This document shows positions 50,082 to 59,077 of a DNA stretch of 64,000 nt, one piece after another. Both the position numbers and the translations under genes were made by a program. Below the pieces are notes generated by a model. That model did no database searches, had not been told where the DNA came from, and worked only from the letters and a program-made list of their open reading frames with translations. Source of the stretch: Escherichia coli (GTDB lineage: Bacteria > Pseudomonadota > Gammaproteobacteria > Enterobacterales > Enterobacteriaceae); NCBI RefSeq assembly GCF_051903065.1, contig NZ_CP178438.1. One strand, written 5' to 3'. How positions within the stretch are numbered: position 1 is the first letter of the stretch; each line of letters begins with the position of its first letter.

Positions 50082-51248
50082 ATGAACTTACATGAATATC
50101 AGGCAAAACAACTGTTTGCCCGCTATGGCTTACCAGCACCGGTGGGTTATGCCTGTACTACTCCGCGCGAAGCAGAAGAAGCCGCTTCAAAAATCGGTGC
50201 CGGTCCGTGGGTAGTGAAATGTCAGGTTCACGCTGGTGGCCGCGGTAAAGCGGGCGGTGTGAAAGTTGTAAACAGCAAAGAAGACATCCGTGCTTTTGCA
50301 GAAAACTGGCTGGGCAAGCGTCTGGTAACGTATCAAACAGATGCCAATGGCCAACCGGTTAACCAGATTCTGGTTGAAGCAGCGACCGATATCGCTAAAG
50401 AGCTGTATCTCGGTGCCGTTGTAGACCGTAGTTCCCGTCGCGTGGTCTTTATGGCCTCCACCGAAGGCGGCGTGGAAATCGAAAAAGTGGCGGAAGAAAC
50501 TCCGCACCTGATCCATAAAGTTGCGCTTGATCCGCTGACTGGCCCGATGCCGTATCAAGGACGCGAGCTGGCGTTCAAACTGGGTCTGGAAGGTAAACTG
50601 GTTCAGCAGTTCACCAAAATCTTCATGGGCCTGGCGACCATTTTCCTGGAGCGCGACCTGGCGTTGATCGAAATCAACCCGCTGGTCATCACCAAACAGG
50701 GCGATCTGATTTGCCTCGACGGCAAACTGGGCGCTGATGGCAACGCCCTGTTCCGCCAGCCTGATCTGCGCGAAATGCGTGACCAGTCGCAGGAAGATCC
50801 GCGTGAAGCACAGGCTGCACAGTGGGAACTGAACTACGTTGCGCTGGACGGTAACATCGGTTGTATGGTTAACGGCGCAGGTCTGGCGATGGGTACGATG
50901 GACATCGTTAAACTGCACGGCGGCGAACCAGCTAACTTCCTTGACGTTGGCGGCGGCGCAACCAAAGAACGTGTAACCGAAGCGTTCAAAATCATTCTCT
51001 CTGACGACAAAGTGAAAGCCGTTCTGGTTAACATCTTCGGCGGTATCGTTCGTTGCGACCTGATCGCTGACGGTATCATCGGCGCGGTAGCGGAAGTGGG
51101 TGTTAACGTACCGGTCGTGGTACGTCTGGAAGGTAACAACGCCGAACTCGGCGCGAAGAAACTGGCTGACAGCGGCCTGAATATTATTGCAGCAAAAGGT
51201 CTGACGGATGCAGCTCAGCAGGTTGTTGCCGCAGTGGAGGGGAAATAA
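50082..51248 (+). CDS. sucC: succinyl-CoA synthetase beta subunit
   Basis: 388-aa [21 protein letters not shown]… (ATP-grasp). Confidence 0.95.
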
Positions 51249-52117
51249 TGTCCATTTTAATTGATAAAAACACCAAGGTTATCTGCCAGGGCTTTACCGG
51301 TAGCCAGGGGACTTTCCACTCAGAACAGGCCATTGCATACGGCACTAAAATGGTTGGCGGCGTAACCCCAGGTAAAGGCGGTACTACCCACCTCGGCCTG
51401 CCGGTGTTCAACACCGTGCGTGAAGCTGTTGCTGCTACTGGCGCTACCGCTTCTGTTATCTACGTACCAGCACCGTTCTGCAAAGACTCCATTCTGGAAG
51501 CCATCGACGCAGGCATCAAACTGATTATCACCATCACTGAAGGCATCCCGACGCTGGATATGCTGACCGTGAAAGTGAAGCTGGATGAAGCAGGCGTTCG
51601 TATGATCGGCCCGAACTGCCCAGGCGTTATCACTCCGGGTGAATGCAAAATCGGTATCCAGCCTGGTCACATTCACAAACCGGGTAAAGTGGGTATCGTT
51701 TCCCGTTCCGGTACACTGACCTATGAAGCGGTTAAACAGACCACGGATTACGGTTTCGGTCAGTCGACCTGTGTCGGTATCGGCGGTGACCCGATCCCTG
51801 GCTCTAACTTTATCGACATTCTCGAAATGTTCGAAAAAGATCCGCAGACCGAAGCGATCGTGATGATCGGTGAGATCGGCGGTAGCGCTGAAGAAGAAGC
51901 GGCTGCGTACATCAAAGAGCACGTTACCAAGCCAGTTGTGGGCTACATCGCTGGTGTGACTGCGCCGAAAGGCAAACGTATGGGCCATGCGGGTGCCATC
52001 ATTGCCGGTGGGAAAGGGACTGCGGATGAGAAATTCGCTGCTCTGGAAGCCGCAGGCGTGAAAACCGTTCGCAGCCTGGCGGATATCGGTGAAGCACTGA
52101 AAACTGTTCTGAAATAA
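51248..52117 (+). CDS. sucD: succinyl-CoA synthetase alpha subunit
   Basis: 289-aa [31 protein letters not shown]… with the phosphohistidine region (…GHAGAII…). Confidence 0.95.
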
Positions 52118-52217
52118 ATATCTGTAATAAGAAATAGCCCTCGCCGCTTCCCTCTACAGGAATGGCGAAGGGCTGTCGGTTTCGACATGGTTGGCCATCG
52201 TATGATGGCCTTTTTTA
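52118..52217 (+). ncRNA. sdhX: probable SdhX (RybD) 3'-UTR-derived sRNA with its terminator
   Basis: About 100 nt after the sucD stop contains two hairpins, the second (ggccatcgtatgatggcc + TTTTTT, 52193-52216) being a canonical intrinsic terminator. Assignment as SdhX is from established knowledge of the sucD 3' UTR; I did not verify it by alignment. Confidence 0.45.
52193..52216 (+). terminator. sdhCDAB-sucABCD operon terminator
   Basis: Perfect 7-bp stem ggccatc/gatggcc with a 4-nt loop followed by TTTTTT. Confidence 0.8.
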
Positions 52218-52352
52218 TGTCTTAAACGGTTAACCACGGTCGAAATCTGACTGCAGGCTTGACTGCATGACCACAACCACTGTGGATTGCCGCGACCGGT
52301 GATGCTGCCAACTTACTGATTTAGTGTATGATGGTGTTTTTGAGGTGCTCCA

Positions 52353-52628
52353 GTGGCTTCTGTTTCTATCAGCTGTCCCTCCTGTTCAGCTACTGACGGG
52401 GTGGTGCGTAACGGCAAAAGCACCGCCGGACATCAGCGCTATCTCTGCTCTCACTGCCGTAAAACATGGCAACTGCAGTTCACTTACACCGCTTCTCAAC
52501 CCGGTACGCACCAGAAAATCATTGATATGGCCATGAATGGCGTTGGATGCCGGGCAACAGCCCGCATTATGGGCGTTGGCCTCAACACGATTTTACGTCA
52601 CTTAAAAAACTCAGGCCGCAGTCGGTAA
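52353..52628 (+). CDS. insA: IS1 InsA
   Basis: 91-aa [46 protein letters not shown]… (zinc-finger DNA-binding InsA). Confidence 0.95.
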
Positions 52629-53050
52629 CCTCGCGCATACAGCCGGGCAGTGACGTCATCGTCTGCGCGGAAATGGACGAACAGTGGGGCTATGTCGGGG
52701 CTAAATCGCGCCAGCGCTGGCTGTTTTACGCGTATGACAGGCTCCGGAAGACGGTTGTTGCGCACGTATTCGGTGAACGCACTATGGCGACGCTGGGGCG
52801 TCTTATGAGCCTGCTGTCACCCTTTGACGTGGTGATATGGATGACGGATGGCTGGCCGCTGTATGAATCCCGCCTGAAGGGAAAGCTGCACGTAATCAGC
52901 AAGCGATATACGCAGCGAATTGAGCGGCATAACCTGAATCTGAGGCAGCACCTGGCACGGCTGGGACGGAAGTCGCTGTCGTTCTCAAAATCGGTGGAGC
53001 TGCATGACAAAGTCATCGGGCATTATCTGAACATAAAACACTATCAATAA
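52547..53050 (+). CDS. insB: IS1 InsB' (expressed as InsAB' transposase by -1 frameshift)
   Basis: 167-aa ORF in the -1 frame relative to insA, overlapping its 3' end, as in IS1. Confidence 0.9.
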
Positions 53051-53560
53051 GTTGGAGTCATTACCGCCGCGACCGACCGCAAGCCACGAATAAGAACGAC
53101 GGCGAATTTCGAATCGTTACCTGATGCACTGGCTTCCCAGCGTTTGACCGTAGCGTTAAGTAAATCAACAAAAGCGATGTTCACCGCTTTTCGTCAAGTC
53201 GTGCCATTTGTCAGCCAGGATCGGGTCTTTACCCCGGATATTGCAGCATCGCAAAAATTCTTAGATGGATATGCTATAAATCAAAAATAAAATCTTTGTT
53301 GATTGTTTATCATAATATCCACAGATATGATAAATGATATCAATTTAATAATTTTCACTTAATGTGATTCCGGATAATTCGAAAGGCGCTGTGCTTTTCG
53401 GATTATTATTATCTGATTAAGATATTTGTCACGCCAGCCTTACTGGTTTATAAATGTCAATCATGATTCTTATAAATTATTTATTGCTGCTTTGGTTACC
53501 ATTACTTCGTAATAAGTAATGTATTTTTGATGGTTTAAACTATTTTTAAGGGACGGCATT

Positions 53561-54184
53561 ATGCGAGGGAAAATACCTAAAACGGAACTGCTGGTGACTT
53601 TTGAGGTCGTCGCACGTCATGAAAGTTATACCAGAGCGGCAGAGGAGTTAGCGTTAACCCAAAGTGCAGTATTCAGACAAGTAAGTGCGCTGGAGGAATT
53701 TTTACGTACTCCGTTATTTTCACACTCTAAAAAACGCATTTTTCTTAATGATACAGGGAAGTATTACCTGGGGATAGTAAAAGAAACATTAAATAAGCTG
53801 GAACGCGATACCAATACCATTATGACCTGGCAGCCTACGGTTCAGGTTATTGAACTTGCCGTTAATCCTACTTTTAGTACCCACTGGTTGATCCCAAATT
53901 TACATGAATTCACAAAGTTACATCCCGATATTATTGTTAATATTCATTCTTTAGCTAATAACGGCGATTTTCTTAATCGGGAGTACGATGCTGTCATTAT
54001 GCGCGAAAATTTTTGCGCGCCCTGGGCGGAAGTAGAATATCTCTTTGATGAGGAGATTTTGCCGGTATGCAGCGGCAGTTTGCTTGCAATGTCCGATCAA
54101 AAGCTGTCAGTGGCAGAACTGCTTACTGAGTTACCGCTTCTGCATCAAAGCACGGCTTTGTTGAATAAATCAGATTTCGGGTAA
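53561..54184 (+). pseudogene. LysR-family transcriptional regulator, 3'-truncated by the IS903-like element (native codons 1-197; the last codons are IS-derived)
   Basis: N-terminal LysR-type HTH (…LVTFEVVARHESYTRAAEELALTQSAVFRQVSALEEFL…); the reading frame runs into the IS903 inverted repeat at 54153 and terminates 32 nt inside it; AT-rich. Confidence 0.8.
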
Positions 54185-55210
54185 GTCTCCCCCGTAGCGG
54201 GTTGTGTTTTCAGGCAATACGCACGCTTTCAGGCATACCTGCTTTCGTCATTTTGTTCAGCGCTCGTACCAGGGCCATAGCCTCTGCAACCTGACCATCG
54301 TAGTCACGCAGTGTCAGTGAACCCCCGAACAGCTGTTTTACCCGGTACATCGCCGTTTCCGCTATCGAGCGACGGTTGTAATCTGTTGTCCATTTCCACC
54401 GCGCATTACTCCCGGTCATTCGCTGATTAGCCACTGCACGGTTACGGTCTGCATATTCACCGGGCCAGTAACCCGCACCTTTTCGGGGAGGGATAAGCGC
54501 GCTGATTTTCTTACGCCGCAGTTCATCGTGACATAGCCGGGTATCGTAAGCGCCATCGGCGGCGGCTGACCTGATTTTCCGGTGGGTTTGCCGGATTAAC
54601 CCGGGGAAGGCCTCTGAGTCCGTAACGTTGTTCAGCGACAGGTCAGCGCAGATGATTTCATGTGTTTTACTGTCAACGGCGAGATGCAGCTTACGCCAGA
54701 TACGGCGGCGTTCCTGGCCATGCTTTTTGACTTTCCACTCGCCTTCACCGAAGACCTTCAGCCCGGTGGAATCAATTACCAGGTGTGCGATTTCACCCCG
54801 GGTGGGCGTTTTGAAACTGACATTAACCGACTTTGCCCGCCTGCTGACACAGCTGTAATCCGGGCAGCGTAGCGGAACGTTCATCAGAGAAAAAATGGAA
54901 TCAATAAAGCCCTGCGCAGCGCGCAGGGTCAGCCTGAATACGCGTTTAATGACCAGCACAGTCGTGATGGCAAGGTCAGAATAGCGCTGAGGTCTGCCTC
55001 GTGAAGAAGGTGTTGCTGACTCATACCAGGCCTGAATAGCTTCATCATCCAGCCAGAAAGTTATGGAGCCACGGTTGATGAGGGCTTTATTGTAGGTGGG
55101 CCAGTTGGTGATTTTGAACTTTTGCTTTGCCACGGAACGGTCTGCGTTGTCGGGAAGATACGTGATCTGATCCTTCAACTCAGCAAAAGTTCGATTTATT
55201 CAACAAAGCC
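54153..55210 (-). mobile_element. IS903-like element (IS5 family, IS903 group), about 1058 bp, with 18-bp terminal inverted repeats and no flanking target duplication
   Basis: Ends ggctttgttgaataaatc (54153-54170) and gatttattcaacaaagcc (55193-55210); encodes the transposase below; flanking 9-mers tcaaagcac and atttatcag differ. Confidence 0.85.
54210..55178 (-). CDS. IS903-type transposase
   Basis: ORF …KQKFKITNWPTYNKALINRGSITFWLDDEAIQAWYESATPSSRGRPQRYSDLAITTVLVIKRVFRLTLRAAQGF… with DDE-type motifs (…VIDSTGLKV…, …AADGAYDTR…, …YNRRSIAETAMYRVKQLFG…); the track start is at 55178, and the true start may be an internal GTG. Confidence 0.85.
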   Translation of the reverse strand: MKDQITYLPDNADRSVAKQKFKITNWPTYNKALINRGSITFWLDDEAIQAWYESATPSSRGRPQRYSDLAITTVLVIKRVFRLTLRAAQGFIDSIFSLMNVPLRCPDYSCVSRRAKSVNVSFKTPTRGEIAHLVIDSTGLKVFGEGEWKVKKHGQERRRIWRKLHLAVDSKTHEIICADLSLNNVTDSEAFPGLIRQTHRKIRSAAADGAYDTRLCHDELRRKKISALIPPRKGAGYWPGEYADRNRAVANQRMTGSNARWKWTTDYNRRSIAETAMYRVKQLFGGSLTLRDYDGQVAEAMALVRALNKMTKAGMPESVRIA

Positions 55211-55581
55211 ATTTATCAGGCGAAAGTGGCCTCTGTTCACTCAGAAACAATCACTCCCGGTAAGTCATACCTGTTTCATCGATACATTTAAGTGATTATT
55301 ACTAATGAAACAATAACATAACGGGCTTACGGTCGGTGCTCATAAAGGCAACAATCAATTAACTTTGATAAAAATATGTTATGTAAAATAGCAACAAATT
55401 GGCTACTCTAATCAATTGGTATTATAAAAAGTTGATTGGGCGGTTCTGTTAAATAAAACACTGGTTTTTTATCTATACCTTTTCATTGTAATAATTGTGT
55501 TGCATAAATATTTCACAATAAATTAACAATAAAATCACCAATGATCTATGGTTTATACATAATTAACATATTTGGTTGGTT

Positions 55582-55595
55582 TTGATATAAATCAA
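55582..55595. promoter_or_regulatory. perfect FNR/CRP-family box TTGAT-ATAA-ATCAA in the cydAB upstream region
   Basis: Sequence ttgatataaatcaa matches the FNR consensus TTGAT-N4-ATCAA exactly, about 340 bp upstream of the cydA start; cydAB is known to be FNR/ArcA-regulated. Confidence 0.55.
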
Positions 55596-55932
55596 TTTTT
55601 AATTCTTGAAAAAAATCTGCAAAACACGATAAATTGTCGTAGATCAAATTGGTGAGATCGTGACAATTTCGCTATAAATTGATCACTGTCGAAAAATGCA
55701 AATTTGCTCAATAAAAACCTGTTTATTGTAAGGATTTTGCGGCGTAATATAATTACGGGATCAATTTGGTTTATTCATTAACATATTTGTAACTTTTTTA
55801 TCATTGTCTTTTCCTCTTTTGATGAAATGGCAACGATAGAGGCGAGCAAATAATTTTGTATTGGGGCATGCGTGTGACCCTTTCTAACGGGGTTCACTCT
55901 CGGAGTCTTCATGCGATGAGCAAGGAGTCATG

Positions 55933-57501
55933 ATGTTAGATATAGTCGAACTGTCGCGCTTACAGTTTGCCTTGACCGCGATGTACCACTTCCTTTTTGT
56001 GCCACTGACGCTCGGTATGGCGTTCCTGCTGGCCATTATGGAAACGGTCTACGTCCTTTCCGGCAAACAGATTTATAAAGATATGACCAAGTTCTGGGGC
56101 AAGTTGTTTGGTATTAACTTTGCTCTGGGTGTGGCTACCGGTCTGACCATGGAGTTCCAGTTCGGGACTAACTGGTCTTACTATTCCCACTATGTAGGGG
56201 ATATCTTCGGTGCGCCGCTGGCAATCGAAGGTCTGATGGCCTTCTTCCTCGAATCCACCTTTGTAGGTCTGTTCTTCTTCGGTTGGGATCGTCTGGGTAA
56301 AGTTCAGCATATGTGTGTCACCTGGCTGGTGGCGCTCGGTTCAAACCTGTCCGCACTGTGGATTCTGGTTGCGAACGGCTGGATGCAAAACCCAATCGCG
56401 TCCGATTTCAACTTTGAAACTATGCGTATGGAGATGGTGAGCTTCTCCGAGCTGGTGCTTAACCCGGTTGCTCAGGTGAAATTCGTTCACACTGTAGCGT
56501 CTGGTTATGTGACTGGCGCGATGTTCATCCTCGGTATCAGCGCATGGTATATGCTGAAAGGTCGTGACTTCGCCTTCGCTAAACGCTCCTTTGCTATCGC
56601 TGCCAGCTTCGGTATGGCTGCCGTTCTGTCTGTTATTGTTCTGGGTGATGAATCTGGTTACGAAATGGGCGACGTGCAGAAAACCAAACTGGCTGCTATT
56701 GAAGCTGAGTGGGAAACGCAACCTGCGCCTGCTGCCTTTACTCTGTTCGGCATTCCTGATCAGGAAGAGGAGACGAACAAATTTGCGATCCAGATCCCTT
56801 ACGCGCTGGGCATCATTGCAACGCGTTCCGTGGATACTCCAGTTATCGGCCTGAAAGAACTGATGGTGCAGCATGAAGAACGCATTCGTAACGGGATGAA
56901 GGCGTACTCTCTGCTCGAGCAACTGCGTTCTGGTTCTACCGACCAGGCGGTTCGTGACCAGTTCAATAGCATGAAGAAAGACCTCGGTTACGGTCTGCTG
57001 CTGAAACGCTATACGCCAAACGTGGCTGATGCGACTGAAGCTCAGATTCAACAGGCAACCAAAGACTCCATCCCGCGTGTAGCGCCGCTGTACTTTGCGT
57101 TCCGTATCATGGTGGCGTGTGGCTTCCTGCTGCTGGCAATCATCGCGCTCTCTTTCTGGAGTGTCATCCGCAACCGCATTGGCGAGAAAAAATGGCTCCT
57201 GCGCGCCGCGCTGTACGGTATTCCGCTGCCGTGGATTGCTGTAGAAGCGGGCTGGTTCGTGGCTGAATATGGCCGCCAACCGTGGGCTATCGGTGAAGTG
57301 CTGCCGACAGCTGTGGCGAACTCGTCACTGACCGCAGGCGATCTCATCTTCTCAATGGTGCTGATTTGCGGCCTGTATACCCTGTTCCTGGTGGCAGAAT
57401 TGTTCTTAATGTTCAAGTTTGCACGCCTCGGCCCAAGCAGCCTGAAAACCGGTCGCTATCACTTTGAGCAGTCTTCCACGACTACTCAGCCGGCACGCTA
57501 A
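55933..57501 (+). CDS. cydA: cytochrome bd-I ubiquinol oxidase subunit I
   Basis: Product [31 protein letters not shown]… (the track ORF has one additional upstream Met at 55930). Confidence 0.95.
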
Positions 57502-57516
57502 GACAGGAGTCGTCAA

Positions 57517-58656
57517 ATGATCGATTATGAAGTATTGCGTTTTATCTGGTGGCTGCTGGTTGGCGTTCTGCTGATTGGTTTTGCAGTCACTGACGGTTTC
57601 GACATGGGGGTGGGCATGCTCACCCGTTTTCTCGGTCGTAACGACACCGAGCGTCGAATTATGATTAACTCCATTGCTCCACACTGGGACGGTAACCAGG
57701 TTTGGCTGATCACCGCGGGCGGCGCACTCTTTGCTGCCTGGCCGATGGTCTATGCCGCTGCGTTCTCCGGCTTCTATGTGGCGATGATCCTCGTGCTGGC
57801 GTCTTTGTTCTTCCGTCCGGTCGGTTTTGACTACCGCTCCAAGATTGAAGAAACCCGCTGGCGTAACATGTGGGACTGGGGCATCTTCATTGGTAGCTTC
57901 GTTCCGCCGCTGGTAATTGGTGTAGCGTTCGGTAACCTGTTGCAGGGCGTACCGTTCAACGTTGATGAATATCTGCGTCTGTACTACACCGGTAACTTCT
58001 TCCAGTTGCTTAATCCGTTCGGCCTGCTGGCAGGCGTGGTGAGCGTAGGGATGATCATTACTCAGGGCGCAACCTATCTGCAAATGCGTACCGTGGGCGA
58101 ACTGCACCTGCGTACCCGTGCAACGGCTCAGGTGGCGGCACTGGTGACACTGGTCTGTTTCGCACTGGCTGGCGTATGGGTGATGTACGGTATCGATGGT
58201 TATGTCGTGAAATCGACAATGGACCATTACGCAGCCTCTAACCCGCTGAATAAAGAAGTGGTTCGTGAAGCTGGCGCATGGCTGGTTAACTTCAACAACA
58301 CGCCAATTCTGTGGGCTATTCCGGCACTGGGTGTGGTTCTGCCGCTGCTGACCATCCTGACTGCACGTATGGATAAAGCCGCGTGGGCGTTTGTGTTCTC
58401 CTCCCTGACGCTGGCCTGCATCATCCTGACAGCCGGTATCGCAATGTTCCCGTTTGTGATGCCGTCCAGCACCATGATGAACGCAAGTCTGACAATGTGG
58501 GATGCAACTTCCAGCCAGCTGACGCTTAACGTCATGACCTGGGTTGCGGTGGTTCTGGTACCGATCATTCTGCTCTACACCGCCTGGTGTTACTGGAAAA
58601 TGTTCGGTCGTATCACCAAAGAAGATATTGAACGTAACACCCACTCTCTGTACTAA
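57517..58656 (+). CDS. cydB: cytochrome bd-I ubiquinol oxidase subunit II
   Basis: 379-aa membrane ORF MIDYEVLRFIWWLLVGVLLIGFAVTDGFDMG…. Confidence 0.95.
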   Translation: MIDYEVLRFIWWLLVGVLLIGFAVTDGFDMGVGMLTRFLGRNDTERRIMINSIAPHWDGNQVWLITAGGALFAAWPMVYAAAFSGFYVAMILVLASLFFRPVGFDYRSKIEETRWRNMWDWGIFIGSFVPPLVIGVAFGNLLQGVPFNVDEYLRLYYTGNFFQLLNPFGLLAGVVSVGMIITQGATYLQMRTVGELHLRTRATAQVAALVTLVCFALAGVWVMYGIDGYVVKSTMDHYAASNPLNKEVVREAGAWLVNFNNTPILWAIPALGVVLPLLTILTARMDKAAWAFVFSSLTLACIILTAGIAMFPFVMPSSTMMNASLTMWDATSSQLTLNVMTWVAVVLVPIILLYTAWCYWKMFGRITKEDIERNTHSLY

Positions 58657-58670
58657 GTAAGGAGCTAAAA

Positions 58671-58784
58671 ATGTGGTATTTCGCATGGATTCTGGGAACG
58701 CTTCTTGCCTGTTCGTTTGGGGTAATCACCGCGCTGGCGCTTGAGCACGTCGAATCAGGCAAAGCCGGTCAAGAAGACATCTGA
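58671..58784 (+). CDS. cydX: cytochrome bd-I small subunit CydX
   Basis: 37-codon ORF MWYFAWILGTLLACSFGVITALALEHVESGKAGQEDI preceded by RBS ggag; below the six-frame track size cutoff. Confidence 0.8.
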   Translation: MWYFAWILGTLLACSFGVITALALEHVESGKAGQEDI

Positions 58785-59077
58785 TGAGTAAGATTATCGC
58801 AACCTTGTATGCGGTAATGGACAAGCGCCCCCTGCGGGCGCTTTCCTTCGTGATGGCGCTTCTGTTAGCAGGATGTATGTTTTGGGACCCATCACGTTTC
58901 GCCGCGAAGACCAGTGAACTGGAAATCTGGCATGGTTTATTGCTGATGTGGGCCGTCTGTGCTGGTGTGATTCACGGCGTGGGCTTTCGTCCGCAGAAGG
59001 TTCTTTGGCAAGGGATTTTTTGCCCATTGCTTGCCGATATTGTTCTCATTGTCGGGCTGATTTTCTTTTTCTTTTAA
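58784..59077 (+). CDS. ybgE: small membrane protein YbgE (cyd operon)
   Basis: 97-aa hydrophobic ORF whose ATG overlaps the cydX stop. Confidence 0.8.
   Translation: MSKIIATLYAVMDKRPLRALSFVMALLLAGCMFWDPSRFAAKTSELEIWHGLLLMWAVCAGVIHGVGFRPQKVLWQGIFCPLLADIVLIVGLIFFFF

Follow-up and report, generated by a model that had tools for sequence, protein, structure and literature searches.

The cydA upstream region and the adjoining insertion element

Within the window (the whole 64-kb stretch of Escherichia coli chromosomal DNA analyzed here), an intact cydA gene is followed by cydB, cydX, and ybgE and is preceded by 722 bp of native cyd DNA, which run from the end of an IS903B element to the cydA ATG (Table 1). 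RefSeq places the cydA start at 55933, and a further in-frame ATG lies at 55930. The initial annotation had described a long AT-rich region kept upstream of cydA to about 720 bp, with an IS903-like element at that distance from the start. Both descriptions were borne out: the element ends at 55210, and the 722 bp measured 32.1% GC, compared with 52.7% in the element and 52.6% in cydA. The entire tract was 100% identical to the corresponding DNA of the IS-free E. coli strain EC2641, and it is common, being at least 80% covered in 2,245 of the 5,426 complete genomes searched.

The element was assigned to IS903B (IS5 family, IS903 group) on the basis of its length, its perfect terminal repeats, and the single DDE transposase gene that fills it. 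The 18-bp inverted repeats (GGCTTTGTTGAATAAATC) are perfect at both ends and are the sole two matches to this sequence in the window. The transposase matched the Pfam families DDE_Tnp_1_5 (3e-40) and DDE_Tnp_1 (7e-33), and in a near-identical genome PGAP names it "IS5-like element IS903B family transposase." The 9-bp target-site duplication was absent, with tcaaagcac on the left flank and atttatcag on the right. This absence is explained by the associated deletion described below and bears on how this copy arrived, not on the identity of the element. We searched the window for a second IS903B or for long repeats that might account for the deletion and found neither.

Farther upstream, between sucD and the LysR-family regulator gene, an IS1A element (52298-53065) is a simple insertion flanked by the 9-bp duplication gccgcgacc. 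An SdhX small-RNA sequence (52118-52216), intact and 100% identical to that of K-12, ends ~80 bp upstream of it.

Table 1. Features of the cydA upstream region and its surroundings (window coordinates)
Feature	Position	Strand	Details
LysR-family regulator gene, 5′ two-thirds	53561-54153	+	cut by the IS; frame continues to a stop at 54184 inside the IS
IS903B, 1057 bp	54154-55210	-	inverted repeats at 54154-54171 and 55193-55210
Transposase ORF	54210-55178	-	reads away from cydA
Retained cydAB control region	55211-55932	+	proximal 722 bp of the 805-bp ancestral spacer; 32% GC
Distal ArcA box pair (predicted)	55348-55382		14.0 and 17.3 bits; -585/-568 from ATG; counterpart of K-12 ArcA region 1 by position
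Middle ArcA box cluster (predicted)	55486-55569		best 20.5 bits at 55512-55529; counterpart of K-12 ArcA region 2
FNR-1 box TTGATATAAATCAA	55582-55595	+	column-for-column alignment with K-12 TTGATATTTATCAA
Promoter P1	55606-55642	+	-35 TTGAAA 55606-55611; -10 TAAATT 55630-55635; spacing 18; promoter scan
FNR-2-like box TTGTCGTAGATCAA	55634-55647	+	2 mismatches; K-12 counterpart TTGTTCTCGATCAA
Second promoter TTGTAA-16-TATAAT	55726-55760	+	promoter scan and mapped K-12 start
Proximal ArcA box (predicted)	55778-55795	-	20.5 bits; counterpart of K-12 ArcA region 3
cydA, intact, 522 aa	55933-57501	+	
cydB	57517-58656		
cydX	58671-58784		
ybgE	58784-59077		

Promoters and FNR and ArcA sites of the retained region

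The perfect FNR-type box claimed by the initial annotation was found to be an exact TTGAT-N4-ATCAA match and the counterpart of K-12 FNR-1, from which it differs in its spacer (ATTT in K-12, ATAA here). The motif occurs twice in the 64 kb, against 0.09 matches expected from shuffled sequences. The other perfect palindrome, TTGATCGAAATCAA (50664-50677), lies inside the sucC coding region and is probably a chance match.

Cyd promoters P1 to P4 are reportedly regulated by oxygen, ArcA, and FNR, and P5 is not, as described by Govantes et al. This distinction has been restated elsewhere (PMC3037301). In K-12, FNR-1 is centered at -53.5 from P1 (Myers 2013, Table 1; PMC3688515); adding 53.5 to its center at U00096.2 770339.5 places the K-12 P1 start at 770393, 288 nt before the ATG. 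Carried over through the FNR-1 center, the P1 start of the window would lie near 55642, ~290 nt before the cydA ATG. The FNR-2-like box follows 52 bp downstream of FNR-1 and overlaps this start. A second K-12 cyd transcription start, mapped at 770509 (Kim 2012; PMC3415461), corresponds to window position 55757, just downstream of the TTGTAA-16-TATAAT hexamers. The region thus resembles the K-12 cydAB promoter, described in Cotter 1997, Govantes 2000, Myers 2013, and Park 2013, in the 52-bp separation of FNR-1 and FNR-2, in the P1 hexamers, and in a second promoter at the mapped start.

Immediately downstream of the P1 start (55648-55670), the sequence is strongly different from that of K-12 (GGTGAGATCGTGACAAT here, GGCTGAAAGGCGGTAAT in K-12). 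A Cra (FruR) site has reportedly been proposed in this part of the K-12 promoter. If a Cra site is present there in K-12, it would appear not to be conserved in the variant carried by the window, with or without the IS.

ArcA sites were predicted with a position weight matrix derived from 115 ArcA boxes (Park 2013, Table S3), for which the training sequences had a median of 15.7 bits. Seven boxes scoring 13.9 to 20.5 bits were predicted in the 722 bp, six of them at ≥14 bits (0.24 expected from dinucleotide shuffles); the distal 280 bp alone held two matches at ≥14 bits (0.06 expected). Three ArcA ChIP-seq regions have been reported upstream of cydA in K-12, at 770081-770111, 770260-770311, and 770526-770556 (Park 2013; PMC3798270). 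The second of these (U00096.2 coordinates) corresponds to window positions 55509-55560, inside the middle box cluster. Measured from the ATG, the predicted boxes lie at -585/-568, -447 to -381, and -155 in the window and at -590, -418 to -387, and -152 in K-12, so that the two share ArcA boxes at about -590, -420, and -155.

The initial annotation had proposed a comparison with the mapped K-12 promoters and footprints and held that its concern over cyd expression would fall if every known site lay well inside the retained region and expression were unchanged. On the sequence half of this statement, the K-12 sites that could be mapped from the genome-wide datasets of Myers 2013, Park 2013, and Kim 2012 (FNR-1, FNR-2, P1, the second start, and the three ArcA regions) all have counterparts 137 to 570 bp inside the IS junction, the most distal predicted ArcA box being the one at 137 bp. 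We read positions 55211-55932 as the complete native control region of the cydABX-ybgE operon, in the sequence variant of strains that have a methylaspartate island between sucD and cydA.

The variant status of this region emerged from the comparison with K-12. By megablast, the proximal ~376 bp (from 55557) matched K-12, with 96.3% identity over the full 2.4-kb match, which extends into cydA, and similarity faded upstream, to about -440. In a global alignment over 55490-55935, ~80% of aligned bases were identical. Upstream of this, local alignment of 55211-55490 to K-12 gave a score of 19, compared with a shuffle mean of 20.8, and no homology was detectable; the possibility that the distal 280 bp represent diverged K-12 sequence was rejected, the alignment being no better than that of shuffles. 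An ArcA box nonetheless lies ~570 to 600 bp before the ATG in both variants (17.3 bits here, 20.2 bits in K-12) despite the distal nonhomology (55211-55490 versus K-12 L003 8613-9030). This distal box was either kept through deep divergence or arose twice.

The two backgrounds also differ in gene content: K-12 carries mngR-mngA-mngB between sucD and cydA, and the ancestor of the window carried a methylaspartate island there. The whole K-12 spacer is 846 bp long with a GC content of 36.6% and ends at mngB (50% GC), a setting that would be much like that of the IS-bounded allele. A constitutive promoter reported for K-12, TCTACA-17-TATATT (Shimada 2014; PMC3946193), appears to lie in K-12-specific distal DNA, and we saw no counterpart of it in the cyd upstream region of the window.

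To place the window's sequence among natural variants, E. coli genomes were sorted into three classes by the position at which homology to its cyd upstream region begins. Homology extends from 55211, over the full 722 bp, in the island type (~1,120 genomes, 98.6 to 100% identity); from 55292 (-641) in the B2/ST131 type (~1,108 genomes, ~90 to 92% identity); and from 55557 (-376) in the K-12 type (~3,195 genomes, ~81% identity). In an ST131 genome, the upstream neighbor of cydA is a TPR-protein gene 1.5 kb away. Its predicted ArcA boxes fall at -585/-568, -421, and -155 and its FNR-1 at -351, and no further boxes were found upstream of these in that genome. Because the B2/ST131 type shares only the proximal 641 bp and has the same site layout, the control module would fit into ~640 bp, a shorter tract than the 722 bp kept in the window. 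The same ArcA/FNR layout is thus present within ~600 bp of cydA in the K-12, B2/ST131, and island types and in the IS-bounded allele, and this common layout bounds the size of the functional cyd control module.

The IS903B joint and the lost methylaspartate island

On its far side, IS903B abuts the truncated LysR-family gene. What remains of this gene encodes an HTH_1 domain and part of a LysR_substrate domain (Pfam), RefSeq lists it as a pseudogene with its C terminus missing, and up to 54153 it matches the uninterrupted gene of strain ECNB21-M121 at 100% identity. In that strain, the two IS flanks of the window lie 13,534 bp apart (L005 16035 and 2500); subtracting the strain's own IS903B copy and its duplication leaves an ancestral interval of 12,468 bp.

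In IS-free relatives, this DNA belongs to an island between sucD and cydA. Read from the sucD side, the island comprises the LysR gene, cobO, and genes for a class I fumarase, a dicarboxylate/amino-acid symporter, a DUF4387 protein, an AtuA-like protein, and methylaspartate ammonia-lyase, followed by three genes annotated as glutamate mutase (subunit E, glmL, and glmS) and by two unknown genes. The deletion took the last third of the LysR gene and everything after it in this list. The island gene nearest to cydA is transcribed divergently from it, with 805 bp of spacer between the two; of this spacer, only the distal 83 bp have been lost. The two deleted genes next to cydA (EC2641 L002 4470-5917) encode 314 and 140 aa at 33 to 44% GC and gave no Pfam match.

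Because the IS903B copy lacks a target duplication and its flanks lie 12,468 bp apart in IS-free relatives, it is identified as the scar of a 12.5-kb deletion. Its treatment as a simple insertion in the initial annotation does not fit these features, nor does it fit the truncated LysR gene on the left flank. The absent duplication is informative because 9-bp duplications flank two further IS903B copies of this island (CTCTCTGAG in GN25, TGGGGATTG in ECNB21-M121). These two copies (GN25, L006 4003-5064; ECNB21-M121, L005 10245-11301) are independent entries, one in the cydA-divergent gene and one in the AtuA-like gene; counting the window copy, IS903B has hit this one 13-kb island three separate times. 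ECNB21-M121 was considered as a progenitor of the window's arrangement and rejected, since its IS903B lies inside the island, is in the opposite orientation relative to cydA, and has its own duplication.

Among the 5,426 complete genomes, the same arrangement over 5.6 kb was found in two, 23CRST027 and 23CRST031 (human faeces, Ecuador), to which both IS junctions are confined. These two genomes bear on whether the joint is real. An assembly artefact, with a collapsed or misjoined IS and the island still present in the strain, deserves mention, as an element in ~19 copies is a classic cause of misassembly and the window differs from the two public genomes by 47 bp exactly at the IS end. Both joints, however, recur in these two complete genomes, which were deposited separately and each match the left joint at 100% identity over 160 bp, and the flanks keep the collinearity with sucD and cydA expected of a clean deletion. 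We consider an artefact very improbable.

The 47-bp difference is an extra tandem IS903B end, including the inverted repeat, which in 23CRST027 and 23CRST031 lies between the full IS and the cyd DNA. At L001 6212-6258 of 23CRST027 it equals window positions 55164-55210, which the window has in a single copy. This extra end may have been left by a second IS903B, or it may reflect a difference in assembly.

Two routes could account for the deletion: adjacent deletion of the IS903 type, through intramolecular transposition, and recombination involving a pair of IS903B copies. IS903 is known to make adjacent deletions without target duplication (Weinert, Schaus and Grindley 1983, cited in PMC11708052), and the window resembles such products in its complete IS, intact repeats, missing duplication, and flanks that are 12.5 kb apart in relatives. 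It departs from them in that the 47-bp IS-end remnant of the related genomes hints at a second copy. In the two-copy route, one IS903B would have interrupted the LysR gene and another, in the same orientation, would have lain upstream of cydA at a distance of 722 bp; RecA recombination between them, or transposition of one into the other, would have removed the intervening DNA. The 47-bp remnant would be expected if an IS903B end had been joined to a site 47 bp into another copy already in place, ~19 places in the strain match the IS903B end, and IS903B entered the island independently in GN25 and ECNB21-M121. The window itself, however, lacks the remnant, so that plain adjacent deletion or simple recombination fits equally well, and none of the 5,426 genomes carries the progenitor allele, a single IS903B with target duplication at either joint. 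On balance, we place the two-copy route at slightly below even odds.

Consequences for cytochrome bd-I regulation

IS elements can activate downstream genes through outward or hybrid promoters, as do ISEcp1, IS1, and IS10 upstream of resistance genes. The window resembles these cases in having an IS ahead of an operon, at the end where transcription enters. Unlike them, IS903B is 722 bp from the ATG and ~430 bp from P1, and its transposase points away. A simple-consensus promoter scan, which weak or hybrid promoters can escape, detected no promoter-like site facing cydA, whether in the IS end or spanning the joint; close to the IS end it picked up a single promoter-like site (55118-55089), which lies on the minus strand and is directed into the transposase. 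The proposal that outward-reading IS promoters could alter cyd expression was thus not supported by the sequence. A full-text literature search found no paper naming both cydA and IS903B. The truncated LysR gene lies on the cydA strand, and weak terminator-like sites alone stand between this fragment and cydA. Read-through from it across the IS into cyd is possible but speculative.

The related proposal that distal ArcA/Fnr sites had been lost was likewise not supported by the sequence. No ArcA box of ≥11 bits was present in the lost 83 bp or the next 1 kb of lost DNA; the nearest such box was at -1727, and a strong one was at -2437, next to glmS. The lost 83 bp contained a single weak FNR-like match with two mismatches, beside the start of the divergent gene. 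Promoter P1 with its two FNR boxes, the second promoter, and the three ArcA regions are all kept at the K-12 distances from the ATG, and control of cytochrome bd-I by FNR and ArcA in response to oxygen would then stay essentially unchanged. The phenotypic loss would instead be that of the methylaspartate pathway.

From the sequence comparisons, we assign a probability of roughly 0.8 to the reading as a whole, that is, a complete native cyd region, an IS903B at the joint of a 12,468-bp deletion, essentially unchanged cyd regulation, and a lost methylaspartate pathway. A change of cyd regulation by IS903B appears unlikely. Accepting this reading, the event to record for the clone would be the loss of the methylaspartate (glutamate fermentation) island and the LysR regulator, not a rewiring of cytochrome bd-I. 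This matters little beyond strain annotation; IS903B and IS-linked deletion are an element and a kind of event that are already well known.

The deletion could nonetheless act on cyd without removing a site. The ancestral AT-rich tract (23 to 44% GC) ran ~2.8 kb upstream of cydA and now ends at -722 against IS DNA of 53% GC. H-NS is an aerobic repressor of cyd, which ArcA is proposed to counteract (PMC3798270); H-NS has also been flagged at the K-12 mngB-cydA spacer (Shimada 2014; PMC3946193). The shortened tract could therefore change H-NS occupancy or spreading. Altered cytochrome bd-I expression might follow from a shortened H-NS domain (weaker aerobic repression), from LysR or IS read-through, which the shared strand and weak terminator-like sites would permit, or from loss of the divergent gene and its transcription-coupled supercoiling. 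We regard such an effect as unlikely, however, given that K-12 regulates cyd normally with its 846-bp spacer bounded by a 50% GC gene, that ST131-type strains share 641 bp only, and that here all predicted sites are kept, no outward promoter was detected, and the transposase reads away. More improbable still is the stronger proposal that cutting the tract, which H-NS probably covers, from ~2.8 to 0.72 kb, together with LysR read-through, measurably raises aerobic cytochrome bd-I expression, such that the deletion was selected in an IS903B-rich clinical clone and is not a neutral island loss.

The cydA leader presents a minor observation separate from the IS. An Rfam scan of 52000-56200 returned no credible RNA family match. 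The last ~70 nt of the leader (55862-55932) are 100% identical to K-12, with only 65% identity in the adjoining blocks. An imperfect hairpin, GTGACCC...GGGGTTCAC, is found within them at ~55874-55898, and a mini-ORF of three codons, ATG CGA TGA (55911-55919), stands directly before the cydA ribosome-binding site. The identity, the hairpin, and the mini-ORF could together point to post-transcriptional control of cydA.
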